In this document: in pieces, positions 827 through 47,384 of the stretch
How positions within the stretch are numbered: the stretch's first letter is position 1
Layout: every line of letters starts with the position of its first letter
From: a virus
Lineage: Duplodnaviria > Caudoviricetes
Strand: one strand, 5' to 3'
Virus record (IMG/VR): IMGVR_UViG_3300009169_000028
Span: 1-53,471 of that record
Length of the DNA: 53,471 nucleotides
Notes under the pieces: generated by a model
The model's input: only the letters and a program-made list of their open reading frames with translations
Told to the model about the DNA's origin: nothing
The model's database searches: none
Position numbers and translations under genes: made by a program

Positions 827-846
827 CCGAGTAGTTGGGTTATGGG
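827..846 (+). repeat. Dispersed dif-like site 1
   Basis: CCGAGTA-GTTGGG-TTATGGG. Confidence 0.8.
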
Positions 847-855
847 TAGTGAATC

Positions 856-881
856 GGGCGCCGTGAGGCGCCCTTTTCTTT
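856..881 (+). terminator. Intrinsic terminator-like hairpin
   Basis: GGGCGCC-GTGA-GGCGCCC followed by TTTTCTTT. Confidence 0.65.
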
Positions 882-904
882 GTTGTCCGGATAGCGATCC
901 GTTG

Positions 905-1348
905 CTACAAGATGCCCATCCTACTCAACGCAATGGTGGTGAGCACTGACAAGATGAGCGTTACCACTGCCCAAATCAGCTTTGAACGTAGGCTATTACC
1001 AGAACCAAGATCGTCTGTGAGATCTGCCAACCATCTGCCTAGCGGCGACTTTTTAGCATAATCAACATAGTCCTGCGCCCGTTTGGTGATGAACACCTGT
1101 AGGTCATTCCGTGGGCCCACTTCCGCGACTTCAAGATAACCTTTCCGTGCAAGTCCTCGATAGAAGACGTCTTCGCTTGGGACGCCTTTGAGAGTGAACG
1201 CGCCGTTTTCAGCATCCAGACCCAGCATGTCTGAAATGCCCGACGCAACTGCAAGGATGTAGGTGGAGCATCCGTTCTCGCGCCCAGCAGTCACCAATCG
1301 CACCAAAAATTCGCTCTGCTTTGGTGTCAGGTCATCGAATTTACCCAT
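905..1348 (-). CDS. Hypothetical protein with C-terminal transmembrane helix
   Basis: Start MGKFDDLTPKQ after GGAGG; hydrophobic C-terminus LIWAVVTLILSVLTTIAL. Confidence 0.65.
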   Translation of the reverse strand: MGKFDDLTPKQSEFLVRLVTAGRENGCSTYILAVASGISDMLGLDAENGAFTLKGVPSEDVFYRGLARKGYLEVAEVGPRNDLQVFITKRAQDYVDYAKKSPLGRWLADLTDDLGSGNSLRSKLIWAVVTLILSVLTTIALSRMGIL

Positions 1349-1395
1349 TCGCCCTCCAAGCTTGAGCTGCAGGACGCGGAATAGGACATGGCGGT

Positions 1396-3054
1396 TCAGT
1401 CGAATAGGGACGCGGTCTGCGCCGTTTGCTCGCCTGCTTTCGGCGCGCGTTTGAAGGTCGTGGCGCTGGCCGGCATATCCACCTGTGCGCCGGCGAGGAG
1501 CTGCTTCACGGTGAGGATCTGGATGCGGCGGTGACGCGTGCCCCAACCTGGTGAGTCGTAGTAGCCTTCTTTCACGGCTGCCAGCTCCATTTCTTTGGTC
1601 GCCGGCTCCAATGTAATGAACACGCCGATGGCTGCATTCTCAGCCTTCACCGTGCCCACCAGGTCCCGGATCTGGGCGGAGCTGACGTGTCCACTCTTGA
1701 CCTGGACGACGACGCGTTTGCCCTTATGGGTGGCGTCGTCGATGAAGGTGACGGCGCCATCCACCCCCCGATCGCTTCCCTTCTTGCCTGTCTTGCTGCC
1801 CTCATCGCCGCCGAGGGGCTTGGCTTTGATCAGCGAGAGCACCCACCACTGGAACTGGTAGCGATCGTCGGCCGCCAGTTGCTTCGCGCCGGCCAGGTCT
1901 TCGGGCTCGCCGATCACATAGTAGTCCAGGTTGCCGAAGCTGTCTTTGAGTCGGTATTTCAGGAGTGCGATGCTCAGGTGCGTGATGTCAATGCCGATCC
2001 AGCGCCGGTCCAGCTTCTGCGCTGCCGCGATCGCGGTGCCGCAGCCGCAGAAAGGATCCAGGACTACGTCGCCCGGGTTGGAGCTCGCTTGGATGATGCG
2101 TTCCAGGAGGGCAATGGGTTTTTGAGTGGGATAGCCGAGACGCTCTTGAGCCTGCGAGTTGATCGGATTGATGTCAGTCCACACGTTGCCCAACAGTGTC
2201 CCTGCCATTTCGTCCAGGTATCTTTTCAGACGCGGCCGCTTGGACGTATCACTGGGATACCAAATGCGGCCCTCCGCGTCCAACTTCGCCATTGTCTCTT
2301 TCGAGTAGCGCCACCCATTCGGCGGTGAGGCGTGTCCTTTCCATTCGTACATCATATTCGGTCGGGGGTTGGGGCTGGTCATGTTGTCCAAAGTGTACAG
2401 CCGCCCATCCGCATCAGCAGAGCGATACTTGGACTTGAGATGTTCCTCTGAGTGTGGTGCGTAAATCGGATTCCATGTGAAGTTGCCGGCTTTGGAGTAG
2501 AAGAAAATGCTGTCACTGACATTGCTCCAAGTCTTGCTATCGCTATGAACATTCGTGCGTTTCCAGACGACTTCGGTTCGAAAATTCTGCGGTCCGAAGA
2601 TAGTATCCATCACGATTTTTAGGTAATGGCTCGCCGTTGGGTCGCAGTGTAGGTATAGGCTCCCGGTCGGCTTCAGCACCCGATGCAACTCTACGAGCCG
2701 GGCGGCCATCATCACGAGGTAGGCCATCATTTGATTCTCGCCGATGGTGGCGCGCAACGCCTCGATCATCCGCCCCACTCGCCCATTGATGTCCGTGACT
2801 AGCTCGTCATACAACGCCTCGGCCGAGTCCCCCCAGTGCCAGGTGTCGTCAAAGGCGACTATCTGTGACTGGGCATCCTTGCCGCCCTCATCCTTGAAGA
2901 GCACGTTGTAGCTGCGGTTCGAGTTGAACGGCGGATCAAGGTAGATCAGGTCAACGCTTTCATTGGGGATGTGTTCCCGCAGGATGGGCAGGTTGTCGCC
3001 GTAGAACAGGGTGTTCGTCGTGAGTAGTTTAGATGTCATGAGTTCAGAGCCCAT
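1396..3054 (-). CDS. N4/N6 DNA methyltransferase (beta class) with C-terminal Mrr-like endonuclease domain
   Basis: LFYGDNL, DLIYLDPPF, YPTQKP, VLDPFCGCGT motifs; C-terminal DRGVDG...VQVKSG; exact start uncertain (3039/3054). Confidence 0.9.
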   Translation of the reverse strand: MGSELMTSKLLTTNTLFYGDNLPILREHIPNESVDLIYLDPPFNSNRSYNVLFKDEGGKDAQSQIVAFDDTWHWGDSAEALYDELVTDINGRVGRMIEALRATIGENQMMAYLVMMAARLVELHRVLKPTGSLYLHCDPTASHYLKIVMDTIFGPQNFRTEVVWKRTNVHSDSKTWSNVSDSIFFYSKAGNFTWNPIYAPHSEEHLKSKYRSADADGRLYTLDNMTSPNPRPNMMYEWKGHASPPNGWRYSKETMAKLDAEGRIWYPSDTSKRPRLKRYLDEMAGTLLGNVWTDINPINSQAQERLGYPTQKPIALLERIIQASSNPGDVVLDPFCGCGTAIAAAQKLDRRWIGIDITHLSIALLKYRLKDSFGNLDYYVIGEPEDLAGAKQLAADDRYQFQWWVLSLIKAKPLGGDEGSKTGKKGSDRGVDGAVTFIDDATHKGKRVVVQVKSGHVSSAQIRDLVGTVKAENAAIGVFITLEPATKEMELAAVKEGYYDSPGWGTRHRRIQILTVKQLLAGAQVDMPASATTFKRAPKAGEQTAQTASLFD

Positions 3055-3068
3055 CACCGCAGTTGCTG

Positions 3069-3088
3069 CCGAGTACATGAGTTATAGG
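3069..3088 (+). repeat. Dispersed dif-like site 2
   Basis: CCGAGTA-CATGAG-TTATAGG. Confidence 0.8.
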
Positions 3089-3096
3089 TAACGATT

Positions 3097-3120
3097 AGGT
3101 CGCCGTGAGGCGGCCTTTTT
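3097..3120 (+). terminator. Intrinsic terminator-like hairpin related to 856..881
   Basis: AGGTCGCC-GTGA-GGCGGCCT followed by TTTT. Confidence 0.6.
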
Positions 3121-3126
3121 GTTGGA

Positions 3127-4170
3127 TCATTCCCGCCATTCGCAGGCTAAGCCATCACTGTCCCGGTCGAGACCATGGATGTCCTGGCCAGTGATCTCTT
3201 TGCAACGGAGGTAACACGCCTGCGCATCCCAGTCAGTGAGGTCGTCGCAGTTGAGGGTGTTGCCAGAGCAATCGCACGTCGAGGCGCTGGCTGCTGGTTT
3301 GCCACGCACCGGCACGGCCGCGGCCGGGGTGGGTTGGCTGACGGTGACGATGGGGACGGCGGCCGGCGGGTTGGAGACGAGGAAGGCGGCGATCCAGGCG
3401 CCGCCGGCGAGCTGATACCAGTCGCTGGCCTGATTGCGGCCCACGATGTCGAGGCCCTGGCCGACTGCGGCGCTGCCGGTCTTGGGGTAGTTGGTGCCAG
3501 GTCCGGAGCGCAGGTTGGCGGCGGTTTTGACGGTGGCGCCTTTCGGCGAGCTCGAGGTCTCAGCGGGAGCCGATGCTGCGGGTGTGCCGGCGGTGATCTG
3601 ATTGATCAGAGTTGTGGCGCGCTGAACGGCGGCATTGCCCTTGCTCAATTCCTCGATGGCCTGGTTGAGCTTTGCGCTGCTAAGCTCGTCTACGCCGGCG
3701 GCGTATAGGTCGCAGGTGTTCTCAAAGTAGCCGGCGGCGGTGAGCATTTCGGAGTGCACGGCAGCGTAGCGCGGGGGCGCGGCAAGATCACGGATGTTCT
3801 GGCAGGCGATCTTGATGGCCGCCAGGTGGGTGGCAGCCTTAATCTTCCAGGCATCGTCAAGGATCAATGACGGGTTGTCGCCGACGGCGCCGGAATCGTC
3901 GCTGATGTCAGATAGGGCTTGGCCCAGGTTTGTGCTGATCTCTCCCATGCTGAGCAGGTAGGCGGACTCTGCGGCAGAGACTCCCTCGGTAGGCTGTGAC
4001 TTTGGGGGGGCGAAAGTCGCACTGGCGACGGCCGTCTTTTGCACCGGGGGCAGATCGGTCGAGGTGGGCGGCGCGGTGGTGCGGGTGGCGGAACTGCCAC
4101 TGCCGCATGCGACGATGGCCAGAAACAGCACACACATAGCGATAATGACGGGAACGGTCTTCGTTGACAT
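3127..4170 (-). CDS. Lipoprotein with bacterial SH3 domain and Excalibur Ca-binding domain
   Basis: Lipobox LAIVAC; ANLRSGPGTNY...IVGRN..DWYQL (SH3b); CDC..NC...LDRDSDGLACE (Excalibur). Confidence 0.8.
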   Translation of the reverse strand: MSTKTVPVIIAMCVLFLAIVACGSGSSATRTTAPPTSTDLPPVQKTAVASATFAPPKSQPTEGVSAAESAYLLSMGEISTNLGQALSDISDDSGAVGDNPSLILDDAWKIKAATHLAAIKIACQNIRDLAAPPRYAAVHSEMLTAAGYFENTCDLYAAGVDELSSAKLNQAIEELSKGNAAVQRATTLINQITAGTPAASAPAETSSSPKGATVKTAANLRSGPGTNYPKTGSAAVGQGLDIVGRNQASDWYQLAGGAWIAAFLVSNPPAAVPIVTVSQPTPAAAVPVRGKPAASASTCDCSGNTLNCDDLTDWDAQACYLRCKEITGQDIHGLDRDSDGLACEWRE

Positions 4171-4301
4171 CCGCTCACTGCTCCAAACCCAACTTCCCGG
4201 GGTGGGCCCGGGGAAGCGATGCACCCCCCAATGAGTACGCCCGACCAGTGGGGGGACCGGCAAAGCCAAAGTTATTACGGATCGCCGCTCGGTGAGGTCA
4301 A

Positions 4302-4571
4302 TCAGTCGCCCAGCACGTGGGCGATGTAGTCTTCACGCGACATGGGACATTCGATGAGGAACTGCAACTGCCGTCGACTGACATTCAACTGGCGGGCGAT
4401 GCGGCTGGCCAAGCTGTCGTCAATCTCGGCATAGGAGCGGGACAGGAATGTGATGGCCACCCTCTGCCCCTCATGCCGGACGACGTATTGTGTATGCTTG
4501 CCGCCTTCGCTTACTTCGGCGGCCAGCTTACCACAAAGCATTTTGTCCAGCGCGACTACTTTGACGGGCAT
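4302..4571 (-). CDS. HicA-like toxin
   Basis: 89 aa; GGKH motif followed by beta strands and a helix (DDSLASRIARQL); downstream of a HicB-like gene. Confidence 0.6.
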   Translation of the reverse strand: MPVKVVALDKMLCGKLAAEVSEGGKHTQYVVRHEGQRVAITFLSRSYAEIDDSLASRIARQLNVSRRQLQFLIECPMSREDYIAHVLGD

Positions 4572-4954
4572 GGTATGATGAGCTGCTGCAGGGCTGCGAA
4601 TTGGCGTTGGAGCGGCCTAGCCAGTGATGCCGGGTCGCTGGCCAGTTCTTGATACACCATCACGAGGATTTCCGCCAGGTCGGCCAGGGCGCGCTGGGGC
4701 GAAGATCCCAAGCCGAACCAGAGATCTTCCCGCTCGGCAGTGGCGACGTAGGCGCCGGTTTCCGGCGACCAGGCGACATGAACCACCAACGGCCGCCGCA
4801 GTTTGAGATCGGCCGCGGGCAGTTGATCTAGTGGCAGGACGCCTTGACTGCCTATCATGAAAGTTGCCTCCAGTGGCGCGGCCCGTCCGACCATGACAGC
4901 GACGTGGCGGGTGGGCTGCGAGGCAGGATACCATCCGTAGGTCTGCGGGATCAT
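4556..4954 (-). CDS. HicB-like antitoxin
   Basis: GAYVAT...FGLGSSPQRALADLAEIL matches the HicB N-terminal fold pattern. Confidence 0.55.
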   Translation of the reverse strand: MIPQTYGWYPASQPTRHVAVMVGRAAPLEATFMIGSQGVLPLDQLPAADLKLRRPLVVHVAWSPETGAYVATAEREDLWFGLGSSPQRALADLAEILVMVYQELASDPASLARPLQRQFAALQQLIIPCPSK

Positions 4955-5268
4955 ACAGTGTCATCCGATCCGGTAAGACTATGCCCGGTAAGCTCAACGT
5001 ACTTGCGCATGGCCTCAGTTAGCGCGCGTACGAGGCCCGGCATGAGTGCGGCCGGCACCGAGACGCCGGCCGCCAGGCGAGCCCGCACCTCGGTGGGCGG
5101 TTCGTTGGCATCGCTGACGATCGGCGGCACGATTTGAAAGAACCGCAGATAGAGATTGTGCTCGTCATTCGTGATCCACACCGATTGGGCCAGCGGGAAG
5201 GCGCAGTCGCCATCCGGATCGAGCTTGAGAGCCACGCGCACTTGGCCGGGGCGCAGTTCATCGTCCAT
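4951..5268 (-). CDS. DUF3467-like protein
   Basis: AQSVWITNDEHNLYLRFFQIVPP...ARLAAGVSVPAALMPGLVRALTEAMRKY; translationally coupled to the HicB-like gene. Confidence 0.5.
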   Translation of the reverse strand: MDDELRPGQVRVALKLDPDGDCAFPLAQSVWITNDEHNLYLRFFQIVPPIVSDANEPPTEVRARLAAGVSVPAALMPGLVRALTEAMRKYVELTGHSLTGSDDTV

Positions 5269-5552
5269 AGTGTATACCCTCTTATCAATTGGTTGGTATC
5301 AGGCTGTGTATCGCAGGCAGGATCATGGCGCCCACGGCTGGCGTGAGCTTCCTTGCCTCCGCGGGTTGGGATAATCTTGGGGATACTACCCCTTGACGAC
5401 TGCGATATGTTCCTCTACAATTGGCGAACGCCCGTTCTATTGCATGAAGGCCAGACAGATGCCGAAGAAGAAACGCTACCCCAGCACCTTCGACCAGATC
5501 CGTCAGCTCCCGCCGGCGCAGCGCCGCTCGGTGTGGGCCGCGATGCGCGCAC

Positions 5553-5933
5553 TTATGCGGGCGTTGAGTTACGCCCCTCAATCGCCGCCAGAGTCATCTC
5601 CATCGCCCGCACCGTCAACGCCCGCTGACCCGCCTCCATCCCCCTGAGCCGGTCACTCCACGCGCGCACTTCCGGCAGTGGATCGCCCGCGCCCAGCTCC
5701 GGCGCCGGATCGTCCACCTCGCCGATCAGGTAGGCTACGGTTGTGCCAAGCGCGTGAGCGATGGCCTCCGCAACATCAAGCGTAGGCGAACCTTCACTTT
5801 TATTGTTGATGATTTCTGATAATGTGCTTGGCGATAAAGAAGGGCGAAACCGTTTAGCTTGAACGTGCAACTGTCCAAACGTCCAATTCTTCTTTTCTCG
5901 CAAGCAATCTACTCTGTCCCCCTGAATCCTCAT
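5553..5933 (-). CDS. XRE-family CI-like repressor
   Basis: LREKKNWT...LSPSTLSEIINN...PTLDVAEAIAHALGTTVAYLIG; divergent from a Cro-like gene. Confidence 0.85.
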   Translation of the reverse strand: MRIQGDRVDCLREKKNWTFGQLHVQAKRFRPSLSPSTLSEIINNKSEGSPTLDVAEAIAHALGTTVAYLIGEVDDPAPELGAGDPLPEVRAWSDRLRGMEAGQRALTVRAMEMTLAAIEGRNSTPA

Positions 5934-6130
5934 AGCTTCCTACTATATCGCAAATCGAACAACACACAATAGTTTTTCGTTTATTTCGTACCCCAACATA
6001 TCGAACAATCACACGATAGATCGTAAAATCTAACTCCGAATATGATGCAGATCATATTCGATTGTTTCGATAAATCGTATAGTACGAACAGGATTTACGA
6101 TTTATCGAAACAAGAGCAGGAGAGACACGC
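5934..6130. promoter_or_regulatory. Lysis/lysogeny switch region with operator repeats
   Basis: AT-rich divergent intergenic region; perfect 18-bp inverted repeat TTGTTTCGATAAATCGTA (6062..6079) / TACGATTTATCGAAACAA (6096..6113); additional TCGA/TCGT half-sites. Confidence 0.7.
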
Positions 6131-6343
6131 ATGACCGAACGGGAGCGCCTGGAACAGTTCATGGCCGAGAAGGGCTGGTCTTACAGCGACCTGGCCCACC
6201 GCCTCAAATGGTCGCCGACGTTCATCTTCGGCTTCCTCAGCGGCGCCTGGCCGGCGACGGAGCCGTTCCGCCAGCGGTTCGCCGAAGTCTTCGGCGCTGC
6301 AGCAGCGGCGCAGGTACTCGGTACTGAGGGGCAGCCCGCATGA
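6131..6343 (+). CDS. Cro-like HTH protein
   Basis: 70 aa, KGWSYSDLAHRLKWSPTFI; AGGAG RBS; first gene of the rightward operon. Confidence 0.75.
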   Translation: MTERERLEQFMAEKGWSYSDLAHRLKWSPTFIFGFLSGAWPATEPFRQRFAEVFGAAAAAQVLGTEGQPA

Positions 6344-6540
6344 ACGCTACCGACACCCCAAACATGACCTACACATTGCCCTTGGGTACGCATGTCACCC
6401 TCCATCCGGAACAGGCTGACGTGATCAGTGCTTTGCGAGCCGAGAATGCGACGTTGCGCCAGACGCTGATCGATGTGACCGGCCAGCGCGACGAGTTGCG
6501 CCAGCAGCTCGACCAGGCGCTGCGGGAGCGTGCCGCATGA
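6340..6540 (+). CDS. Small coiled-coil hypothetical protein
   Basis: ATGA overlaps on both sides; heptad pattern. Confidence 0.6.
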   Translation: MNATDTPNMTYTLPLGTHVTLHPEQADVISALRAENATLRQTLIDVTGQRDELRQQLDQALRERAA

Positions 6541-7037
6541 CCGCCTTTGCTGCAAGTGGCTGGGGCCTCCGCCGCTGGTTCCAGCTCTCCGGGTTCACCC
6601 GCTCGCGCGGGACGGATGCGTTCTGGTGTCGGGTGGAAAAGCGCCTCGACGCGGCGGCGTGCTGGCCGTGGAGCGGAGGGCAATCGGGTACGGGATACGG
6701 GTATCTGTATTGGCGGGGGCGCCGGCAGTATGCGCACCGGGTGGCGTGGGAGCTGGCCAACGGACAGCCGATTCCGCCGGGCATGTTGGTGCGCCATCAC
6801 TGCGACAACCCGCTGTGCTGCCGACCGAGTCATCTGGCGCTGGGACGGCATCGGGACAATATGCGGGACATGGCGCTACGCGGGCGGCGGGCCAGCTATC
6901 GGCTGTCGCCGGCTGCGGTGGTGATGATCCGCCAGAGCGATCGGCCATCGGCGCATTTGGCGGCGGAGTTGGGTGTGTCGCCGACGGCGATCCAGATGGT
7001 GCGGCGGCAGGAAGTCTATCGCAACGTGGAGGCATGA
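6537..7037 (+). CDS. HNH endonuclease with C-terminal HTH
   Basis: CWPWSG..YG....AHRVAWELANG.IPPGMLVRHHCDNPLCCRPSHL. Confidence 0.85.
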   Translation: MTAFAASGWGLRRWFQLSGFTRSRGTDAFWCRVEKRLDAAACWPWSGGQSGTGYGYLYWRGRRQYAHRVAWELANGQPIPPGMLVRHHCDNPLCCRPSHLALGRHRDNMRDMALRGRRASYRLSPAAVVMIRQSDRPSAHLAAELGVSPTAIQMVRRQEVYRNVEA

Positions 7038-7378
7038 TGAAGACACACATCGGGTCTGATCGGTGGGGGCGGCGTGAGCGCCTGATTGCGGTGATCATTA
7101 TCGGCTGCCTGATTTTGCTCGCCCTGGTGCTGACGGACCGGGCCGACGCCAGCCAGCTCGCGGGGAATAAGGGGGGCTGCGGGACCGGCAACATGATCAC
7201 GCTGTCATGCAATGTGTCGGACGCCGGACAGGGGTTCGTGTCCGGCAAGTGCGAGTATGGACACTGGTTCAGCCGGGTGAGCACGGCCAGGGTATTCACT
7301 ATTGGACAGGTCGTCACGGCCCGCGGCTGCGAGGGGCTGAATGGCGAGTTGTACGCACCTATCAGGATTTCGAAATGA
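7034..7378 (+). CDS. Secreted or membrane-anchored hypothetical protein
   Basis: Start MMKTHIG overlapping previous stop; hydrophobic N-terminal segment; Cys-containing domain. Confidence 0.55.
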   Translation: MMKTHIGSDRWGRRERLIAVIIIGCLILLALVLTDRADASQLAGNKGGCGTGNMITLSCNVSDAGQGFVSGKCEYGHWFSRVSTARVFTIGQVVTARGCEGLNGELYAPIRISK

Positions 7379-7731
7379 CACCCAGCAAACTGCAGGCTGT
7401 TGCTGCCGGAATGCGCACGAGTGTAGCCCAGCATGACACAGGCTGGACGGCCGCCACGCTGCCGGGCGGGCTGGAGCTGGTGCTCTCCCGCCAGGCCGGC
7501 GACACGTGGCGGCTGGCGCTGCGCCGGGAGCGGGTCTATCCGTCGGACACCGAGGCGAGCATTCTGGCTGAGGTGTTCGGCGTGCCGGAGGGACTCGAAA
7601 CCGCCCGGCGGCGCTCCTGGCTGGATACGCATCCGAAGAGCGCGCGGCAGGTGCGCTGGTGCGTGGTCGAGTTTGTCTGGCGCGAGGTTCCGGAGCACGC
7701 ACCGGCCGCGGTCGCGGCCACTGGGGTCTGA
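7375..7731 (+). CDS. Hypothetical protein
   Basis: ATGA-coupled start MTPSKLQ. Confidence 0.55.
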   Translation: MTPSKLQAVAAGMRTSVAQHDTGWTAATLPGGLELVLSRQAGDTWRLALRRERVYPSDTEASILAEVFGVPEGLETARRRSWLDTHPKSARQVRWCVVEFVWREVPEHAPAAVAATGV

Positions 7732-7949
7732 TCGTCCGGCGCGAGGCCGGACTGATGCCTGCACACACTAGGCTCGAATCGGGTGAAATGCTCACTAGCG
7801 GCGGGCAGGCTATCAGCCCGGGCTCGGACCGGGGGATCGGTGTTGTGGCGGTCTGCGGCACCTCCTAGCGGGGACGCTGGGGGGGATGGTCCCTTGCTGA
7901 CAGGATCGCATGAGTCGGCGCCAGGCGCCAGGAAGGGGAGGCAAGCGGG

Positions 7950-8294
7950 ATGGAACCGGGAATGGCTGTTCTGTTTCGGGTTTTGATCGCGCTGCCGGTG
8001 CTGAGCCTGGCGGCCGTGGGTTACAACTGGCTGATTGCGCATTACGGCAAGCACGGTTATCTGGACGGGTATATGGCGCTCGCCGTGGCGGTGGGGTGCG
8101 CGGGGGTGCTGCTGGTGGCACTGTGGGTCGTGTGGCCGCTGGGGCCGGCGGCTCGGCTGGCGGTGGCGATTATAGCCGGGCTGTTCGTGCCGGCGGGTGT
8201 GGTGATGATCATCGGTTCGATCGGGCGGCACGTGAAGGCCCGGGCGCAGGAGCGGAGCCGGATGGAAGCTGAGGCGCTGAGGTCGGTGCAGTGA
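7950..8294 (+). CDS. Membrane protein (3 TM)
   Basis: Three hydrophobic segments. Confidence 0.65.
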   Translation: MEPGMAVLFRVLIALPVLSLAAVGYNWLIAHYGKHGYLDGYMALAVAVGCAGVLLVALWVVWPLGPAARLAVAIIAGLFVPAGVVMIIGSIGRHVKARAQERSRMEAEALRSVQ

Positions 8295-8518
8295 GCACGG
8301 CGAAGCGGATCGGAGGCTATGTCTATCGACAAGAGGTGGCCCGGGTGCGCGCGGCGACGTCGTCGGCTCGGGGCTATGTGGAGCGCATTCTATCCGAGAA
8401 GCCAGGTCCGGCCTTGACAGCCTTGTACCTGGCGCATGTCGGCCTCGAGCTGGGGGTGATCAGCGAGGCGACTGCCGTTCTGGATGAGATCGGACGGGGA
8501 GCGGCGGCCTCGCAATGA
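8291..8518 (+). CDS. Hypothetical protein
   Basis: GTGA-coupled ORF, 75 aa. Confidence 0.5.
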   Translation: MSTAKRIGGYVYRQEVARVRAATSSARGYVERILSEKPGPALTALYLAHVGLELGVISEATAVLDEIGRGAAASQ

Positions 8519-8533
8519 CAGGGTGACCGGGTT

Positions 8534-8553
8534 CCTATAATGGGGATACCCGG
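8534..8553 (-). repeat. Dispersed dif-like site 3 (upstream of recombinase)
   Basis: + strand CCTATAA-TGGGGA-TACCCGG. Confidence 0.8.
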
Positions 8554-8573
8554 AAACAAGGGGGGGACTCATC

Positions 8574-9662
8574 ATGTATACCAGGCGGGAAACGGCAACG
8601 GTAGAGGATGTCGAGTTCCGGGTGGCGCCATCATCCGAATGGGAGGTCGTGGTGTCGGCCGGGGCGGAGGCGCCAGCCAGGGGACAGGGGGCAGGGGACA
8701 GGAGTCAGGGGACAGAGAATACGGCGCTCGTGCCGGCCGGCCTGGACATCGAGGGTATCCTGAATCTGTTCGATGAGTGGATGAAGCTGGACGTCGGCGA
8801 TGGCCGGGCGAGTCCGCTGACGCTGATCGCATATCGGAGCGATGTGCGGCAGCATCTCGTGTGGCTGGTGGAGCAGAGGAAGACGCCGGCGCAGGTGACG
8901 ACGTTCGACCTGAAGGCCTATAGAGCGCACCTGGTGGAGAGCTACCAGGTGTCAACCGTCGGGCGAAAGCTGGCCAGCATCCGGCGGTTTTATCAGATGG
9001 CGCAGGCGCACGGGATGCTGCCGGTGAATGCGAGCTACGGGCTGAAGAGTCCGGTCGATAAGACGGAGCAGAGCGAACGGATCAAGTATCTGACGCTGAT
9101 GTCGCTGAAGGCGTTGTTTGCGGCGACAGAGACGGCGAGCACGCCGGCGGCGCAGATCCGGGATAAGGCGATCATCGCGCTGATGGCCATCCACGGCCTC
9201 AGAGTGTGCGAGGTAAGCCGGCTGGACCTGACGGACGTGGATCTGGAGAAAGGCGAGGCCGGGGAGCTGGCCGCGCTGGGCAAGGGGGATAAGCGGCGGA
9301 GTGTGCTGTTGACGGATGACACCCGGCCGGCGTTGGAGAAGTGGTTGGCGGTGCGGCGGCTGATGCACGCCGACTCGCCGGCGCTCTTCCTGGCGCTGAG
9401 CGGGCCAGCGGAGCGGATTAGCACGCGCGGGCTGCGGGCGATGGTGGATCACTACCTGGTGAAGATCGGGGCCAAGAAGACGGGTGTTTCATGCCACGCG
9501 CTGCGGCACACGTATGCGACCCAGAGCCTGGCAGCCGGGGCGAGTCTGCTGGCGATCTCCGGGAGTATGGGACACAGCTCGGTGACGACGACGCAGGTCT
9601 ACGCTCAGATCGTGGACAAAGCCCGAAACAATCCGGCGAAGTTCTTAGTAGGGCTGTTATAG
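8574..9662 (+). CDS. XerC/XerD-like tyrosine recombinase (second, non-integrase recombinase)
   Basis: SAM-like domain (SPLTLIAYRSD, STVGRKLASIRRFY); catalytic RD..I.....HGLRVCE, GKGDKRR, HALRHT, GHSS, TTQVY. Confidence 0.92.
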   Translation: MYTRRETATVEDVEFRVAPSSEWEVVVSAGAEAPARGQGAGDRSQGTENTALVPAGLDIEGILNLFDEWMKLDVGDGRASPLTLIAYRSDVRQHLVWLVEQRKTPAQVTTFDLKAYRAHLVESYQVSTVGRKLASIRRFYQMAQAHGMLPVNASYGLKSPVDKTEQSERIKYLTLMSLKALFAATETASTPAAQIRDKAIIALMAIHGLRVCEVSRLDLTDVDLEKGEAGELAALGKGDKRRSVLLTDDTRPALEKWLAVRRLMHADSPALFLALSGPAERISTRGLRAMVDHYLVKIGAKKTGVSCHALRHTYATQSLAAGASLLAISGSMGHSSVTTTQVYAQIVDKARNNPAKFLVGLL

Positions 9663-9663
9663 G
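9644..9663 (+). repeat. Dispersed dif-like site 4 (overlaps recombinase stop codon)
   Basis: CTTAGTA-GGGCTG-TTATAGG. Confidence 0.7.
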
Positions 9664-9690
9664 TATTCTGCCGTCGAGGGTGATGCAAAT

Positions 9691-9975
9691 ATGAAAAGTA
9701 ATGAAATCGAGACCGCCGACGCTACGATTATCATTCAGTCGTGCGATAACGTTTCGGCGAATATCGGCGTTTTACACGGCGGAACAATAACCTATCGGCC
9801 TGTGGCCCTGCCATCCCTAAAACACGAATGGCACCGGGAACATTTGGCTTGCCTGGAACTGCCGATGGACAAGTTTGACGAAATCTTGCAGAGAAATAGG
9901 GCCGTGCTGCTGGAAACCATAGCCAGGCTAAACGTCCCAACAACGGATCCACCGTGCCGGCTGCGCCGGTGTTAG
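9691..9975 (+). CDS. Hypothetical protein
   Basis: 94-aa ORF, lower GC than flanks. Confidence 0.5.
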   Translation: MKSNEIETADATIIIQSCDNVSANIGVLHGGTITYRPVALPSLKHEWHREHLACLELPMDKFDEILQRNRAVLLETIARLNVPTTDPPCRLRRC

Positions 9976-9979
9976 ACGG

Positions 9980-10038
9980 AAAAAGGAACCGCCGACGGGA
10001 TCAGCGCCGGCGGGCCAGCGGGGGGGGACCTCGCTGGT
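9980..10038 (-). ncRNA. Candidate small antisense RNA with C-rich loop
   Basis: Extended -10 TGcTATAAT (10045..10053, minus), hairpin CCAGCG-AGGTCCCCCCC-CGCTGG, then a terminator hairpin and T-run. Confidence 0.4.
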
Positions 10039-10074
10039 GAGCTGATTATAGCATATCTCCACAGGGGGGGACAG

Positions 10075-10272
10075 ATGAGCGAAGAGCAGACAAGCTATCG
10101 GGTGTTCCGGCCGGAGCTGCCCCTGGCCGCCTGGGTGCGGGAGCAGCGGCAGCCGGTGGTCGTCCACCGCCAGGATCTGGCCGCGCTGCGGGAGGCTGGG
10201 GCGGCGAACGTGGTGGCGCTGCCGCATGGCGGGCCGCTGCGCGGCGAGGCGTGGGTCGAGGTGCGGGGATGA
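10075..10272 (+). CDS. Hypothetical protein
   Basis: G-rich RBS; 65 aa. Confidence 0.55.
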   Translation: MSEEQTSYRVFRPELPLAAWVREQRQPVVVHRQDLAALREAGAANVVALPHGGPLRGEAWVEVRG

Positions 10273-10658
10273 ACGATCAACCCAACAGCAGCGGCTCCAG
10301 CGCCGTCTGGGGCATCCTGGCCGGTATCGTGCTGATCATCGCCCTGATCGGCGGGAGCCTCTATCTGATCGGCGATCTGGGCGTGCAACGCGAGCGGGCA
10401 CGCGCTGAGCAGGAGAACGCCAGAGCGCAGGTCGAGACGGCGCGGGCTTATGCGCAGACGCAGATCGCCCAGGCTCAAGTCGAGATGGCACGGGCGCACG
10501 AAGAGGGATCGACAGAACGGATGCAGGTCTTCGCGCTGACGCTCAAGTCGCTGACCGCAGAAAACCAGATGACCATCACGCTGCTATCCGTGGGCGTGCT
10601 GATCCTCGGCATTCTGCAACTGGTCCAGACCCTCACCCGGCCGCGAGGTGGCGCATGA
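10269..10658 (+). CDS. Membrane protein with coiled coil
   Basis: TM - coiled coil - TM; ATGA coupling. Confidence 0.6.
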   Translation: MNDQPNSSGSSAVWGILAGIVLIIALIGGSLYLIGDLGVQRERARAEQENARAQVETARAYAQTQIAQAQVEMARAHEEGSTERMQVFALTLKSLTAENQMTITLLSVGVLILGILQLVQTLTRPRGGA

Positions 10659-10882
10659 CGACACAGAGACGCTACAGTCATTACACCTACACCATTACCA
10701 ACAAGGCCAGCATCGTGCTGCTGTGCGTTTTGCTGGTGGCTAGTGGATCGCTGTGGGTGCGCTACTGGGCCAGCATCCCGCCACCTATTGAGGATGCATT
10801 ACGGGTAGCCTGGTCTGTCTGGGCGCTGGCGTTTGTGATCCGACTGTTTGAGGCGCTGATCCGACGCTACGCAGTGAGGTAA
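10655..10882 (+). CDS. Small membrane protein
   Basis: Two hydrophobic segments. Confidence 0.55.
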   Translation: MTTQRRYSHYTYTITNKASIVLLCVLLVASGSLWVRYWASIPPPIEDALRVAWSVWALAFVIRLFEALIRRYAVR

Positions 10883-10884
10883 CC

Positions 10885-11571
10885 ATGAAGCAGTTCACTC
10901 AGACATTCGTGCCGCCGGCCCCAGCGCCGGCGCAAATGCCGGCACAGCAGCCACGGGAAGCGGCTTCGATCTGGATGAGCGGCGTCGTGGCGCCGTTCGT
11001 CCAGAACATCATCGGCGGGATCGGCGTGGCGGTCATTGCCGGCCTGATCGGTTTGGCGGTCGCGCCGGGCAATCCGGTGCTGGTAGGTAAGGCGGCCATG
11101 ATCGCCGGTGCGGTCGTGTTCGGCGGCTCCTGTGCGATCCGGGCGTTTCGGGATGAGATCGCGATGATTGTGGCGGCCTATGCCGATGGGCAGCGCGATG
11201 AAACGATCGAGGCGTTGCGGCGGGAGAACGGCCGGCTGCTGGCCGAGGTCGAGCGGCTGAAGGACGAGGGCATGGTGGCGCACGCCTGGGGAGCGCGCGA
11301 GGCGGCGGAGCGGCTGGTAACGAGCTATTTTGCCGCCGTGGCCGCCAACCAGGATGTGCGCGGCCATCTGGCCCGCGCCGAATCTATGCAGCGCGGTCTG
11401 AGCCGTGCTGCATGGGAGCAGGGCGTGCGATTCCTGCAGAATGCCGGCGTGCTCGATCGTGGCACGCTGCTGGCCGTCAGCGAGGAGGCGGCGTTAGCCG
11501 CCATCGCCCGGCACGCCGCCACGTCACGCGTCAGCGTGCGCGCCGCCAACGGCGACATGGCGAGATTGTAA
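10885..11571 (+). CDS. Membrane-anchored hypothetical protein
   Basis: GAGGT RBS; two TM then a coiled coil. Confidence 0.6.
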   Translation: MKQFTQTFVPPAPAPAQMPAQQPREAASIWMSGVVAPFVQNIIGGIGVAVIAGLIGLAVAPGNPVLVGKAAMIAGAVVFGGSCAIRAFRDEIAMIVAAYADGQRDETIEALRRENGRLLAEVERLKDEGMVAHAWGAREAAERLVTSYFAAVAANQDVRGHLARAESMQRGLSRAAWEQGVRFLQNAGVLDRGTLLAVSEEAALAAIARHAATSRVSVRAANGDMARL

Positions 11572-11672
11572 GTTATGTCGAATCATGACCGGGAAGTGGG
11601 ATCGGGATCATCCCAGCCCGGCAAAATGACCCCCTTCCCGCTCAGGCGGGGGAGGGGAGAGAGGAAGACGCA

Positions 11673-11936
11673 ATGAGCGGCATGGATCGCTACATTGATC
11701 TGGTTTACGGCGGTGTTACGCCGGATGCGCTCGACTACTACACCGGCCGCGCGCAGATGGCACACGCCGAACGGGATCGGCTGGCCATGCGAGCAGTTGA
11801 TGAGCAACTTGCTGCCGCGCGGCGTAAACAGGCGTGGGCCATCGGCGCACGGCGCCAGCTCGCCGAACTGTGGGCTGGGCTGACACCTGAAGAGCGCCAG
11901 GCCATCATACTGGAAGCGGAAACACTGTCACGATGA
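11673..11936 (+). CDS. Hypothetical protein
   Basis: RBS GAGGA; 87 aa. Confidence 0.55.
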   Translation: MSGMDRYIDLVYGGVTPDALDYYTGRAQMAHAERDRLAMRAVDEQLAAARRKQAWAIGARRQLAELWAGLTPEERQAIILEAETLSR

Positions 11937-11979
11937 ATAGTCATCACAAAGGGAAAAAAGGAAATAAAGGAACAAGCAC

Positions 11980-12679: not shown

Positions 12680-12692
12680 TTTGCGCGCAAAC
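12679..12692. promoter_or_regulatory. parS-like palindrome copy 1
   Basis: GTTTGCGCGCAAAC immediately upstream of the ParB gene. Confidence 0.5.
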
Positions 12693-14895: not shown

Positions 14896-14915
14896 CCGAG
14901 TACGGCAGTTATAGG
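14896..14915 (+). repeat. Dispersed dif-like site 5
   Basis: CCGAGTA-CGGCAG-TTATAGG. Confidence 0.8.
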
Positions 14916-17079: not shown

Positions 17080-17329
17080 TCGTAATCACAGGGCGAAGCG
17101 GCTGTCGGCGGACGAGTTTATCCGCATTTGGCAGGCAGCCGAGACGGTAGAGCAGGTTGCCGAGGAGACGGGGGCGCACTACACGGCAGTCCTAAGCCGG
17201 GCCCGGCGCTACCGGGAGCGCGGGGTACAGCTTCGGGAGTTGCAACGGAGCGTGCGGCCGCATAACTATGGCAACGACTGGGATGCGCTGCGGGCGTTGG
17301 CGGTCGAGCTGCGACCCGGTTCCGAGTAG
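17069..17329 (+). CDS. Small HTH-like protein
   Basis: EFIRIWQAAETVEQVAEETG...SRARRYRERGVQL. Confidence 0.6.
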   Translation: MGNNRNHRAKRLSADEFIRIWQAAETVEQVAEETGAHYTAVLSRARRYRERGVQLRELQRSVRPHNYGNDWDALRALAVELRPGSE

Positions 17330-17341
17330 GAATCTTATAGG
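17322..17341 (+). repeat. Dispersed dif-like site 6
   Basis: CCGAGTA-GGAATC-TTATAGG. Confidence 0.8.
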
Positions 17342-19876: not shown

Positions 19877-19896
19877 CCGAGTATGCTTATTATCGG
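19877..19896 (+). repeat. Dispersed dif-like site 7
   Basis: CCGAGTA-TGCTTA-TTATCGG, 2 bp from the TerL stop. Confidence 0.8.
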
Positions 19897-24697: not shown

Positions 24698-24717
24698 CCC
24701 ATAATCTGTCTACCCGG
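24698..24717 (-). repeat. Dispersed dif-like site 8
   Basis: + strand CCCATAA-TCTGTC-TACCCGG. Confidence 0.8.
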
Positions 24718-27481: not shown

Positions 27482-27501
27482 CCGATAAGAGGTGTACTCG
27501 G
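27482..27501 (-). repeat. Dispersed dif-like site 9
   Basis: + strand CCGATAA-GAGGTG-TACTCGG. Confidence 0.8.
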
Positions 27502-30923: not shown

Positions 30924-30943
30924 CCGAGTATCTTCGTTATGGG
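30924..30943 (+). repeat. Dispersed dif-like site 10
   Basis: CCGAGTA-TCTTCG-TTATGGG. Confidence 0.8.
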
Positions 30944-33621: not shown

Positions 33622-33641
33622 CCGAGTAGTGTGATTATAGG
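33622..33641 (+). repeat. Dispersed dif-like site 11
   Basis: CCGAGTA-GTGTGA-TTATAGG. Confidence 0.8.
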
Positions 33642-37072: not shown

Positions 37073-37092
37073 CCGAGTAGCGGCATTATGGG
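37073..37092 (+). repeat. Dispersed dif-like site 12
   Basis: CCGAGTA-GCGGCA-TTATGGG. Confidence 0.8.
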
Positions 37093-38201: not shown

Positions 38202-38221
38202 CCGATAAGGGCGATACTGGG
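38202..38221 (-). repeat. Dispersed dif-like site 13
   Basis: + strand CCGATAA-GGGCGA-TACTGGG. Confidence 0.78.
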
Positions 38222-41188: not shown

Positions 41189-41261
41189 GACTGGGACACG
41201 GAGACACGGAGACACAGGGACGGGGCGACACGGGGATCCCCGTCCCTAACAGGAGGATTTG

Positions 41262-41720: not shown

Positions 41721-41961
41721 TTCATGGCTGGCGTACGAGGTGGATGTGGCGGCGCTGCTGTTGGGGCGGCGGGTCGAGGCGCTGATAGCCGATGGGAAGA
41801 CGAGCGTGGCTGAGGCGCTGAGCAGACTGGAGCAGGAGTCAGGGGTCAGGGGACAGGGGTCAGGGGTCAGGGATCAGGGGGCGTGGGCGAATCAGAAGTG
41901 GCGAGATCCACGGCCGTATGTGTCGAAGAGGATGGAGATACCCGAAAGTGGGATCTGGTGA
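41623..41961 (+). CDS. Tail assembly chaperone frameshift extension (T)
   Basis: Overlaps G in the +1 frame with no convincing RBS or start; overlap begins at GCC CCC TTT CGT. Confidence 0.55.
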   Translation: MPPFVRNREELWLLHQVAQTYSSRPSAILCLSDSWLAYEVDVAALLLGRRVEALIADGKTSVAEALSRLEQESGVRGQGSGVRDQGAWANQKWRDPRPYVSKRMEIPESGIW

Positions 41962-41973: not shown

Positions 41974-41993
41974 CCGGGTAGAGCCATTATAGG
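41974..41993 (+). repeat. Dispersed dif-like site 14
   Basis: CCGGGTA-GAGCCA-TTATAGG. Confidence 0.8.
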
Positions 41994-45368: not shown

Positions 45369-45410
45369 GGGCGGGACGCGGGGACACGGCGACACGGGGA
45401 CACGGGGATT

Positions 45411-45430
45411 CCGGGTACGCACATTATAGG
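45411..45430 (+). repeat. Dispersed dif-like site 15
   Basis: CCGGGTA-CGCACA-TTATAGG. Confidence 0.8.
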
Positions 45431-45435
45431 AGCTG

Positions 45436-46227
45436 ATGGTGGCGCAGGCGTGGGAGTATGACGGGATCGATCTGACCCAGACGGGGTATAACGTGCGGTT
45501 GCTGGGGGCGCCGTTCGTCACGCCGGCGCGGCGCGGGGATAACGTGGTAATTCCAGGTAAGCCTGGGCGCTTTTACGTGTCGAAGCAGATCGATCAGCGG
45601 GTGCAAACGCTGGCGATGTGGGCGATCGACGAGCCAGTGGGGGGCGGAACGGAGTCCGAGGCGAACATGCTGGCTAACCTGGACGTGCTGCGGGGCTTGT
45701 TCGCCAGGGCTGGCCAGCACACACTGAAGCAGCAGTTCGGCTCGGCAGTGCGGACGGCGACGGTCGAGGTGGTAAACCAGGTGACGTTCGAGCCGAAGGT
45801 GGGGAACCTGGCGTATGTGTTCATGGTGGACTTCCTGATGGCCGATCCGCTGTGGTATGCGGAGTCGAAGACGACGGTCGGTCCGACGACGATCACAATG
45901 GCGTCGCAGAATATCACGGTGACGAACGCGGGGACGTATCAGAGCGAGAAGGCGATTTTCACGCTGGCGGGGCCGTTGAGCAATCCGAAGCTGACGATCG
46001 GCAGCGTCTGGGTGCAGTATACGGGAGCGATCGCCAGCGGGCAGAGCCTGGTGTTGACGTGCGAGACGTGGACGGCGCTGAAAGCCGGAGTGGATGTCAG
46101 TGGGGACATCACACACGAAGGGGCGCTGAGCTGGCTGCTGATCCCAGTCGGGGCGAATACGATGAATGTGGCAACGGGGACGACGGGCGGGAGCGTGAAG
46201 GTGGAGTTCTACGCGCCCTACGTGTGA
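45436..46227 (+). CDS. Distal tail protein (Dit)
   Basis: IPGKPG, FLMADPLWY, NAGT, IPVGANT; directly after the tape measure gene. Confidence 0.8.
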   Translation: MVAQAWEYDGIDLTQTGYNVRLLGAPFVTPARRGDNVVIPGKPGRFYVSKQIDQRVQTLAMWAIDEPVGGGTESEANMLANLDVLRGLFARAGQHTLKQQFGSAVRTATVEVVNQVTFEPKVGNLAYVFMVDFLMADPLWYAESKTTVGPTTITMASQNITVTNAGTYQSEKAIFTLAGPLSNPKLTIGSVWVQYTGAIASGQSLVLTCETWTALKAGVDVSGDITHEGALSWLLIPVGANTMNVATGTTGGSVKVEFYAPYV

Positions 46228-46268
46228 CACGGAGACGCGAGGACACGGAGACGCGGGGAGAGCGGATC

Positions 46269-47327
46269 ATGGCTAGATTGCTGACGGCGGGGTTTGAGAC
46301 GGGGTCGATCCAGGAGCTGAACGGCGCGACATATGGGGCCGTGGCCGTTAGCGCGGCTGGGGTTCGGACGGGGACATATAGCCTGAATTTGCCGGGTGGA
46401 TCGCTGCTGGGGGCGACGACCTACCAGGGGCATGTGTTTGACGCAACTGTGACCGAATTTTTCTTTCGCATCGCCTGGGAACTGGACGCGAGCGGGATAG
46501 CCGGGTATCCCTATGTGCAATTTGTGGACGAAAACGGTTCACCGCAACTGACGCTGCGCTTCAATGGTCCGACCCAGTCGTTTCGGCTCTATCGCGGCGG
46601 GATTGATTACAACACCCCAGGCAACAACGTGCTGCTGGCATCCGGAAACATTGTGCTGCGCGCAGGCATTTTGTATCTACTGGAAGGTACGGCCATTATC
46701 GACGATGCATCCGGGACGTTCCTGCTGAAAATCAATGCGGTGACTGACATCTCGTATAGCGGAGATACTAAAGCGACAGCGACGGCTGGGGTGCGCAGTC
46801 TGATGTTCCTCGGTCCGTGGGGCGGTGGCAATCTGTACATCGACGATATTGCATTCAACGACACGAGCGGATCGTTCGAGAACAGCTATCCTGGACTGGG
46901 CGGGATTTTCTTCTTGAAGGCCAACGGGGCGGGAGCGACGCAGGAATGGACGCCCAGTGCGCTTTTGGCTCACCATACGCTGGTAGATGATGTGCCGGCG
47001 AACACGACAGACTGGGTGCAGGGGGAGAATGCCGGGGATCTCGAGCTGTTTGACATCGAGGATACGCCAGACTATGTGACGGCGATCAATGTGGTGCAGC
47101 CGGCGTTCCAGGCAGCGGTGGCGGTGAGTGGGAGCAACGAGATCCGGGATGTGGTGTCGGATGGAACGGAGTATTCGGGCGATACGACCCACACGGTCAT
47201 TTCGATCGCACCGAGTTACGTGCTGTATCTGGGGAAGACGTACTACGAGCAGCCGGATGGGGTGAGCGGGGCGTTCGATGCGACGGCGTTGGATGCGCTG
47301 CAAATGGGGTTTGAGATTCCGGCGTGA
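46269..47327 (+). CDS. Minor tail protein (lectin-like beta domain)
   Basis: MARLLTAGFE, VRTGTYSL, YIDDI; tail-region position. Confidence 0.65.
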   Translation: MARLLTAGFETGSIQELNGATYGAVAVSAAGVRTGTYSLNLPGGSLLGATTYQGHVFDATVTEFFFRIAWELDASGIAGYPYVQFVDENGSPQLTLRFNGPTQSFRLYRGGIDYNTPGNNVLLASGNIVLRAGILYLLEGTAIIDDASGTFLLKINAVTDISYSGDTKATATAGVRSLMFLGPWGGGNLYIDDIAFNDTSGSFENSYPGLGGIFFLKANGAGATQEWTPSALLAHHTLVDDVPANTTDWVQGENAGDLELFDIEDTPDYVTAINVVQPAFQAAVAVSGSNEIRDVVSDGTEYSGDTTHTVISIAPSYVLYLGKTYYEQPDGVSGAFDATALDALQMGFEIPA

Positions 47328-47364
47328 CGCAGGAGACAGGGGACAGGGGTCAGGAGACAGAGTA

Positions 47365-47384
47365 CCTATAAGTTGAGTACTGGG
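47365..47384 (-). repeat. Dispersed dif-like site 16
   Basis: + strand CCTATAA-GTTGAG-TACTGGG. Confidence 0.78.

Follow-up and report, generated by a model that had tools for sequence, protein, structure and literature searches.

An array of 24-bp two-armed sites in a temperate tailed phage that encodes two Xer-like tyrosine recombinases

The sites and their placement

The IMG/VR viral contig IMGVR_UViG_3300009169_000028, which was analysed over its whole length of 53,471 bp (63% G+C) and is called the window here, is by its gene content a temperate tailed phage. It carries an array of short sites dispersed along the genome, each consisting of two conserved arms around a 6-bp spacer, and it encodes two Xer-like tyrosine recombinases, whose types are labelled RecA and RecB.

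The motif CCSRGTA-N6-TTATVGG occurs exactly 15 times in the window, 10 times on the plus strand and 5 times on the minus strand, and 0 times in 100 dinucleotide-preserving shuffles of the same sequence. When two mismatches are tolerated, there are 18 matches against 1.2 expected, that is, three beyond the exact 15. The original prediction counted 16 sites. Fifteen of them are exact and lie where they were placed (Table 1), but the sixteenth, at 9644, has two mismatches and is indistinguishable from chance. In the orthologous gene of the related contig G001, the peptide KFLVGLL with its stop codon is kept at this place, four synonymous positions are changed, and the GTA is lost. Because the match is at chance level and the synonymous positions are not conserved in G001, we treat 9644 as doubtful. 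With 9644 included, the order of orientations along the genome is + + - + + + + - - + + + - + + -.

Homology to the capsid gene gives G001 (48 kb, 12 sites), G002, G003, and several metagenome fragments. An IMG/VR scan with TTCCGNGTA-N6-TTATNGGAA gives further array bearers, and the backwards pattern, used as a control, gives 0 matches everywhere. Besides the window and G001, exact sites are carried by G005 (44 kb; 8, plus near-sites), G006 (11 kb; 6), G007 (7 kb; 4), G008 (7 kb; 3), G009 (15.5 kb; 4), G010 (36 kb; 6), and G013 (29 kb; 4). G014, covered only in part, has a single site that may be a chance match. Searches with RecA alone or with a two-sequence alignment return only distant matches or G001, a scan with the exact 17322 site matches only G001, a scan with a 14-base consensus returns mostly chance matches, and the scans of the genome collection return no prophage relative.

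Over 47 sites from 12 sources, the bases flanking the 20-bp motif are informative (TT before it, W and A after it), so that the full site is the 24-bp sequence TTCCSRGTA-N6-TTATVGGWA, with a 9-6-9 arrangement. A never occurs as the first base of the spacer, nor T at position 18. The arms are invariant and the spacers drift. The outer TTCC and GGAA are symmetric, and the inner GTA and TTAT are unlike; the site thus has two inverted arms around a 6-bp centre, as Xer/dif-type sites do. In the window, GTA and TTAT are separated by 6 bp in 18 cases, by 5 bp in none, and by 7 bp once; over the 12 array-bearing contigs (250,718 bp), separations of 5 and 7 bp are again found in no case and once. The arms are always paired in the hetero combination, with 66 cases of GTA-N6-TTAT and 0 each of ATAA-N6-TTAT and GTA-N6-TAC in the same contigs, a pattern that would not arise from a single homodimer but would from two different proteins or two domains. 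In accordance with the original prediction, the geometry is that of a tyrosine recombinase site with unlike arms and strict 6-bp spacing, and one arm only is Xer-like: TTAT opens the right arm, as it does in pdif sites of Acinetobacter plasmids, and the left arm ends with AGTA or GGTA and never with ATAA. The only site found with a 7-bp spacer, CCGAGTA-AGGAATC-TTATAGG at 29273-29293 of G005 (L313), equals the site at 17322 of the window and its G001 counterpart plus one base; its right arm is unlike those of the other G005 sites, and its flanks are unrelated. A variant right arm is hinted at in L331.

The predicted placement at gene junctions is borne out by 15 of the 15 firm sites, each of which overlaps a stop codon or lies in a gap where the neighbouring gene on one side is 0-76 nt away. 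Over 12 contigs (286,250 bp), 5 of 71 sites are deep inside called open reading frames (ORFs), which hold 68% of the bases (p = 2e-27), and at least two of these five stem from over-long ORF calls. With respect to transcription, 33 sites of the array-bearing contigs are sense and 17 antisense, and 9 and 8 lie in convergent and divergent gaps, respectively.

The two recombinases and their association with the array

RecB was recognised by protein clustering of the array-bearing contigs; its gene exits the window at the right end and re-enters at the left. Both proteins match the Pfam family Phage_integrase (3.5e-27 for RecA and 1.3e-38 for RecB) and also have a SAM-like domain. The best NCBIfam models for both are XerC, XerD, and XerA, all under the curated cut-offs. 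In particular, RecA reaches 164 with TIGR02224 (cut-off 335) and 149 with TIGR02225 (cut-off 330), and RecB of G001 reaches 140 and 147. Judged by these scores, both proteins are Xer-like, and neither is XerC or XerD. They are 25-30% identical to each other, and each has the residues R, K, HxxR, H, and Y.

The link between the array and a phage Xer-like enzyme is stronger than originally claimed, in that two paralogues accompany the array. Every array-bearing contig of at least 29 kb, of which there are five (the window, G001, G005, G010, and G013), encodes orthologues of both recombinases, with identities of 43-86%. G005 was found by the DNA motif alone. According to tblastn with all ORFs of at least 30 aa, the window and G005 have in common only the two recombinases and a helicase, and the window, G001, and G005 together have only the two recombinases in common. 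No virion protein in common with the window was found in G005, G006, or G007. Conversely, RecA homology picks out five contigs, four of which have canonical arrays. In the remaining contig, a 13-kb piece, two variant sites lie in gaps, and one of these directly precedes RecA. Rctr41k, a structural relative and the only named relative of the window (capsid identity 42%), encodes two distant recombinases (23-34% identity) and has no motif. No array was found at 77 terminase-relative loci, and no motif in most capsid relatives at 40-50% identity. The motif is therefore independent of the virion lineage, since contigs with unrelated virion genes carry it and terminase and capsid relatives are mostly without it. 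On the same sequence comparisons, the terminase is a separate mosaic module.

The region upstream of RecB contains two half-sites, one per arm type (Table 1). This pair is kept in G001, and G005 has two TTCCGATAA there instead. The window, G001, and G005 each have a full or near-full site at a distance of 344-361 nt upstream of RecB. Between the half-sites and the full site, the window has a fragment resembling the 3' part of a tRNA gene, which is 100% identical in G001 in surroundings of ~76% identity; G005 has a different tRNA-like stretch at this place. The fragment is called by neither ARAGORN nor Rfam, the Rfam search of 450-950 giving only a sub-threshold small RNA match, and it looks like a candidate attP core adjoining RecB. 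The left arm TTCCGAGTA at 825-833 resembles the T-loop box GGTTCGAGTCC at 665-675, the two being one extra C apart, which may be a coincidence.

Table 1 Positions of the sites, the recombinase genes, and other features in the window
Feature	Position	Strand	Spacer	Remarks
RecB-type recombinase, N-terminal part	1..478	-		ATG at 478; whole protein ~325 aa
Two half-sites, direct repeat	506..536	+		TTCCGATAA-N13-TTCCGAGTA; 28 nt upstream of RecB start codon
tRNA-gene-like 3' fragment	653..698	-		46 nt, by eye; anticodon-arm-like hairpin, loop UUCACAU, GGTTCGAGTCC box
Site	827..846	+	GTTGGG	followed by terminator-like + strand hairpin 856-885; 349 nt upstream of RecB start
Cassette between sites 827 and 3069	885-3064			N6/N4 methylase fused to Mrr-type nuclease domain, and 213-aa ORF; G+C 0.59, below most of the genome
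Site	3069..3088	+	CATGAG	in 59-bp repeat (site and hairpin) in common with 819-877
cI-like gene of divergent pair	5553-5933	-		
cI/cro-like switch region	5934-6130			AT-rich; several TCGAACAA / TTGTTCGA-like repeats and 24-nt palindrome 6037-6060
cro-like gene of divergent pair	6131-6343	+		
Site	8534..8553	-	TCCCCA	20 nt upstream of RecA start codon; G001 site at same place, same orientation
RecA-type Xer-like tyrosine recombinase	8574..9662	+		362 aa; R-K-H-R-H-Y all present; ~75-aa N-terminal extension
Doubtful site	9644..9663	+		CTTAGTA...TTATAGG, 2 mismatches; within last seven codons of RecA gene
Site	14896..14915	+	CGGCAG	G001 copy identical, flanks unalignable
Site	17322..17341	+	GGAATC	overlaps upstream gene's stop codon; 30 nt identical in G001, flanks unrelated
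Site	19877..19896	+	TGCTTA	convergent gap before 3' end of minus-strand terminase gene
Site	24698..24717	-	GACAGA	divergent gap, other end of minus-strand terminase block; 14 nt before RadC-like gene
Site	27482..27501	-	CACCTC	17 nt before gene 27519-27974; homologous sites in G001 (CACCTA) and G003 (CACCGA)
Capsid-protease gene	28135-30846			single 903-aa gene; S77 prohead protease fused to Gp23-like major capsid protein
Site	30924..30943	+	TCTTCG	between capsid-protease gene with long hairpin and gene 30961
Site	33622..33641	+	GTGTGA	
Site	37073..37092	+	GCGGCA	same spacer at this junction in G001 and G009
Site	38202..38221	-	TCGCCC	2 nt before gene 38224 (g58); G009 site in opposite orientation, spacer TCGCCA
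Site	41974..41993	+	GAGCCA	9 nt before tape-measure gene
Site	45411..45430	+	CGCACA	5 nt before Dit-like gene; GG of site within ribosome-binding site
Site	47365..47384	-	CTCAAC	G001 without site at this junction
RecB-type recombinase, C-terminal part	52760..53471	-		runs off window end, resumes at 478..1; catalytic residues present

Other genes identified in the window comprise portal, head-morphogenesis, major tail, chaperone, tape-measure, and Dit genes, and the large terminase is encoded within the minus-strand block. Further genes encode a RadC-like protein, two ParB-like proteins (12703-14589 and 25664-26635), a helicase, and a fusion of a DNA methyltransferase (MTase) with an Mrr-type nuclease domain. 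The protease-capsid fusion is kept in many metagenomic relatives and in Rctr41k; no close relative was found among deposited phages. The repeats and the palindrome of the cI/cro-like switch region are likely operators, unrelated to the 24-bp site. Bases 1-203 and 53269-53471 of the window repeat each other with 88% identity, indicating that the assembly is circularly permuted or terminally redundant and comes from a mixed strain population; the IMG/VR entry lists the contig as linear and 63% complete. Rfam and tRNA (ARAGORN) scans of the window give no match.

Several other repeats are present. Tandem arrays of G-rich heptamers (CAGGGGT, CAGGGGA, or CAGGAGT), all on the plus strand, lie at 8678-8715, 16708-16742, 29049-29105, 32841-32893, 41833-41880, 47330-47360, and elsewhere, some of them inside genes (among others in the capsid-protease gene and in the part of RecA that encodes the N-terminal linker) and some in gaps adjoining sites; in L205, L253, and G003, related arrays are found after the capsid gene. 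Octamers (GGGACACG) form arrays at 45373-45408 and 41195-41233. The heptamer and octamer arrays could form G-quadruplexes. The stretch from the capsid-protease stop codon to the site at 30924 contains a hairpin (30847-30916) made up of two long AGTTGTC heptamer arrays in inverted orientation, and each relative has a different hairpin or repeat at this spot. Four copies of CCTCGCAATGACAGG are located on the plus strand just before gene starts (8508, 32604, 33695, and 40619), each with GATTGCTT 20-60 nt upstream that is able to pair with GCAAT, and G001 has a related element ending in GGAATGACGAGG. These copies are a second family of intergenic elements, which may be structured RNA. G001 (L012-L014) has three copies of a perfect 33-bp palindrome, AGACCTTTAGGGTCTGCGAGACCCTAAAGGTCT, which adjoin the sites at rc 2738, 16391, and 28909; this is apparently a genome-specific mobile hairpin element. 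After the last late gene of the window, a perfect 35-bp tandem repeat (52573-52690, 2.2 copies) is followed by a decayed site-like sequence, CCGAGTA-CTCAAC-ATAATTATAAC, the spacer of which is that of the site at 47365, and then by a terminator-like hairpin.

Cassettes, spacers, and proposed crossover at the sites

Some cassettes bounded by sites differ between relatives. The MTase-Mrr cassette is absent in G001, which has one site at this place against two in the window; the spacer of the single site, GTTGAG, differs at one position from GTTGGG (827) and at two positions from CATGAG (3069). The genes g56-57 between 37073(+) and 38202(-) are absent in G001 and G009. At the first g56-57 site, the spacer GCGGCA is kept in the window, G001, and G009, and the cassette that follows is different in all three. 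In G011 (L319), a contig that is classed as a provirus and has 57% G+C, two direct sites with the same spacer, GTCAAC, enclose a Prim-Pol/D5 primase-helicase gene (14440-17272 for the whole arrangement), and G012 has the same 26 nt as the G011 site in unrelated flanks. In addition, three pairs of sites in the window and G001 (14896, 17322, and 37073) are identical including the spacer in flanks that cannot be aligned, and the minus-strand blocks of the window, G001, and G003 are bracketed by inward-facing sites. The original prediction that the sites divide the genome into coherent modules is supported in so far as some indel cassettes (MTase, g56-57, and Prim-Pol of G011) are bounded by sites. 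The proposed module consisting of the recombinase alone depends on the doubtful site at 9644.

The half-sites at RecB, the strictly hetero arms, and the presence of both recombinases fit a phage-encoded XerC/XerD-like pair acting on dif-like sites. From the architecture of the sites and their co-occurrence with the genes, we infer that the chances are even that the sites are bound by this pair. Given binding, recombination at the sites would be probable, though far from certain; the alternative is that the bound sites would serve regulation or architecture. In the proposed mechanism, the RecA-type and RecB-type enzymes would each take one of the two unlike arms, as XerC and XerD do on dif, and strand exchange would take place there. 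The sites of one genome would be inert towards each other because their spacers differ. Copies with the same spacer, present in co-infecting relatives or after the fresh insertion of a cassette, could cross over, and such crossover would gain, lose, or swap gene cassettes bounded by sites. This reading as a whole, namely a lineage of temperate tailed phages with an XerC/XerD-like heterodimer of its own and 8-16 dif-like sites per genome, in which site-specific recombination between matching spacers excises and inserts cassettes and exchanges them among co-infecting phages, has in our estimate a probability of about 0.3, and the view of the sites as live crossover points that move cassettes is accordingly tentative.

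A number of observations weigh against binding and crossover at the sites. The first group concerns the spacers, which were predicted to be position-specific addresses. Over ten homologous pairs of sites in the window and G001, the spacers are identical at 44 of 60 positions (73%), compared with 78% in the backbone (21 kb of alignable sequence), indicating no selection for spacer addresses, and the three identical spacers in ten or eleven pairs are near the expectation for neutral descent. Spacers as conserved addresses are thus not supported. All 16 spacers of the window differ, as claimed, but random hexamers would all differ with a probability of 0.97, so that their uniqueness is no evidence. 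Spacers recur at non-homologous places (TCGCCC and CACCTC) about as often as chance predicts (2 against ~1 expected by a rough estimate from 64 distinct spacers), and this recurrence was not used.

The second group concerns breakpoints and orientation. Mosaic breakpoints were predicted to coincide with the sites. A junction was counted as broken if one flanking gene only has a G001 homologue, if the gap differs by >300 nt, or if identity jumps by >25 points. By this definition, 8 of 10 site junctions are broken between the window and G001, compared with 15 of 26 others (odds ratio 2.9, Fisher p = 0.27), and with this p value the sites are not established as preferred breakpoints. The spacer of the post-capsid site groups with the allele of the downstream gene (the window, L207, and L253 against G001 and L205), whereas the capsid end groups the window with G001; since the spacer co-segregates with the downstream gene, the crossover occurred to the left of the spacer. 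Between the window and G009, the site before g58 has opposite orientations and a nearly identical spacer (TCGCCC and TCGCCA), and a collinear exchange there would be blocked by the flipped site. G001 has no counterpart of the site at 47365, and this absence counts against addressed exchange, as does the mixed orientation of the sites. In addition, the sites do not alternate in orientation as pdif sites strictly do (C and D modules, PMC13141974), 10 of 12 sites in G001 being in one orientation.

The third group concerns the arms and the genes. The left arm, with its AGTA end, departs from the ATAA of Xer arms. The small array-bearing pieces G002, G003, G006-G009, and L067 have no recombinase gene and, given their size, are uninformative; G011, with two sites, has only a RecB-like gene (44%). 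Finally, because the tRNA-like fragment adjoins it, RecB may be an ordinary integrase that has no need of dispersed sites.

Rival readings and known systems

The strongest rival holds that the sites are operators or roadblocks, similar to stoperators, for a DNA-binding protein other than a recombinase, which would be a fast-evolving phage regulator or a host factor. The borders of cassettes would then coincide with sites because both are intergenic and because short conserved sequences invite ordinary recombination. We consider this unlikely, although it accommodates the strictly intergenic placement, the modest sense bias (33:17, p = 0.03), the neutral spacers, the lack of a significant breakpoint excess, and the junction before g58, which is served by either orientation. 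It also accommodates the finding that a site and the ribosome-binding region of the next gene are conserved as a unit where the gene body differs (27482/G5773 and 30924), and an asymmetric stoperator read by a two-domain monomer provides a precedent (PMC9283540). However, the repeats of the cI/cro-like switch region at 5934-6130 are of other kinds and include no copy of the motif, neither G001 nor G005 has a homologue of the cI-like protein, and the window, G001, and G005 have in common no DNA-binding protein but the two recombinases. Moreover, orientation varies, with 17 of 50 sites antisense and a further 17 sites in gaps that are convergent or divergent, and a host factor would leave the co-occurrence with the recombinase pair in five of five large contigs unexplained.

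Two specific candidates for the binding protein were considered. An immunity operator read by the cI-like repressor was rejected, since the switch region has no motif and the cI-like gene is not common to the array bearers; no site or near-site was found between 3069 and 8534, a stretch that includes the switch region. The ParB-like proteins were given little weight, as the ParB is 43% identical in G001 and has no homologue in G005. Proteins of the KorB/Noc type do bind many sites, but such sites are contiguous palindromes.

A second rival is that the sites are true pdif-like sites, which mimic the host dif and are used by the host XerC and XerD, with RecB integrating at a tRNA gene and RecA resolving multimers. 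Arrays in phages with unrelated structural genes (G005, G006, and G007) would be expected with enzymes supplied by a common host, pdif sites likewise have a 6-bp spacer and an arm that begins with TTAT (PMC13141974), and the tRNA-like fragment beside RecB suggests that RecB has an ordinary att site of its own. This reading is nevertheless improbable, given that the left arm is without the ATAA of Xer arms, that both phage recombinases are present in five of five large contigs, and that half-sites lie in the region upstream of RecB. The scans of the genome collection yield no prophage relative, and hence no host dif for comparison.

That the sites are promoters, terminators, or another signal at the RNA level is very improbable: they do lie at promoter-like places, after hairpins, and before ribosome-binding sites, and one arm read on the other strand gives TATAA-like hexamers (one is flagged at 19877), but there is no -35/-10 geometry with a 6-bp gap and no conserved T at the last -10 position, and of the 50 sites between co-directional genes, 17 are antisense, so that a promoter is rejected on geometry and orientation, as the mixed orientation had originally suggested. 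Some sites end 2-9 nt before a start codon or contain the ribosome-binding site and must therefore be transcribed; the arms are not complementary and thus form no hairpin, and Rfam gives no match.

If the sites are indeed crossover points of the phage recombinases, the consequences would be considerable. The joints of phage mosaics are usually ascribed to rare illegitimate recombination or to short shared sequences, and a phage with a recombinase pair and sites at the borders of gene blocks would have a dedicated enzymatic mechanism for mosaicism and modular exchange. It would be a self-encoded, phage-borne equivalent of the plasmid dif modules; a dedicated mechanism of this kind is so far known only in plasmids that borrow the host Xer enzymes. 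Even if the sites are regulatory, two things would be new: that a two-arm site of strictly hetero type accompanies two recombinase genes in phages whose virion genes are unrelated, and that the recombinases, or some other partner, act genome-wide. With a 24-bp site and proteins of 325 and 362 aa, the system is small and well defined. In the literature searched, we found no description of arrays of dif-like sites in tailed phages.

Among known systems, the site proposed for Tyrovirus gp50 also belongs to a tailed phage with several Xer-like recombinases and is an 11-6-11 inverted repeat beside one gene; it is a single proposed attP with perfect inverted arms, in contrast to a dispersed array of sites with unlike arms (PMC9703825). 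The PeSLs of T4-type phages are short conserved intergenic motifs that border inserted, deleted, and replaced genes, and several sites of the window likewise adjoin hairpins (827, 3069, 30924, and 19877). However, PeSLs are promoter-plus-terminator units that act through homologous recombination (PMC2839356, PMC4122927), whereas the motif described here occurs in both orientations, and a promoter scan of 1-20000 of the window finds no sigma-70-type geometry that fits it. The stoperators of Cluster A mycobacteriophages resemble the array in being conserved asymmetric sites in short intergenic gaps across the genome of a temperate phage, but they are 13 bp long, their motif is also that of the early-promoter operator, and the protein that reads them is the immunity repressor (PMC9283540, PMC6550527). 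In the window, by contrast, no copy of the motif occurs in the switch region, conservation among array bearers does not extend to the repressor-like gene, and the two parts of the site are separated by a free spacer. Neither the presence of the motif at an early lytic promoter operator nor a single orientation to transcription, both typical of stoperators, is observed.

The site dif occurs once per chromosome, against 8-16 sites in these phages, and serves the resolution of chromosome dimers, which is a different role. The likeness to XerC/XerD-dif lies in the two paralogous tyrosine recombinases, the asymmetric site, and the 6-bp central region (PMC2731167). The phage proteins score far under the equivalog cut-offs (164 against 335 and 147 against 330), and the phage sites give no sign of FtsK control.

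The likeness is greatest to the pdif sites of Acinetobacter Rep_3 plasmids, which have an 11-6-11 structure and recombine only if their spacers are identical or nearly so (PMC13141974). As in these plasmids, there are many sites per replicon (15 firm sites in the window and 4-12 in the other large contigs), each with two unlike arms and a 6-bp spacer, the spacers differ, and cassettes lie between the sites. The exchange of single modules between replicons through pdif sites that share a spacer has also been proposed (PMC13141974), which is the idea of the original prediction. The plasmids use the host XerC and XerD and sites near the chromosomal dif, whereas the phage encodes its own pair; the conserved part of the phage site is 9-6-9, with one arm ending in GTA instead of ATAA; and recombination has been demonstrated experimentally in the plasmids (PMC13141974), whereas the phage array is described here from its sequence. 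On this comparison, the pdif/dif modules of Acinetobacter are the closest known system, and the phage array is best read as a phage variant of their arrangement.

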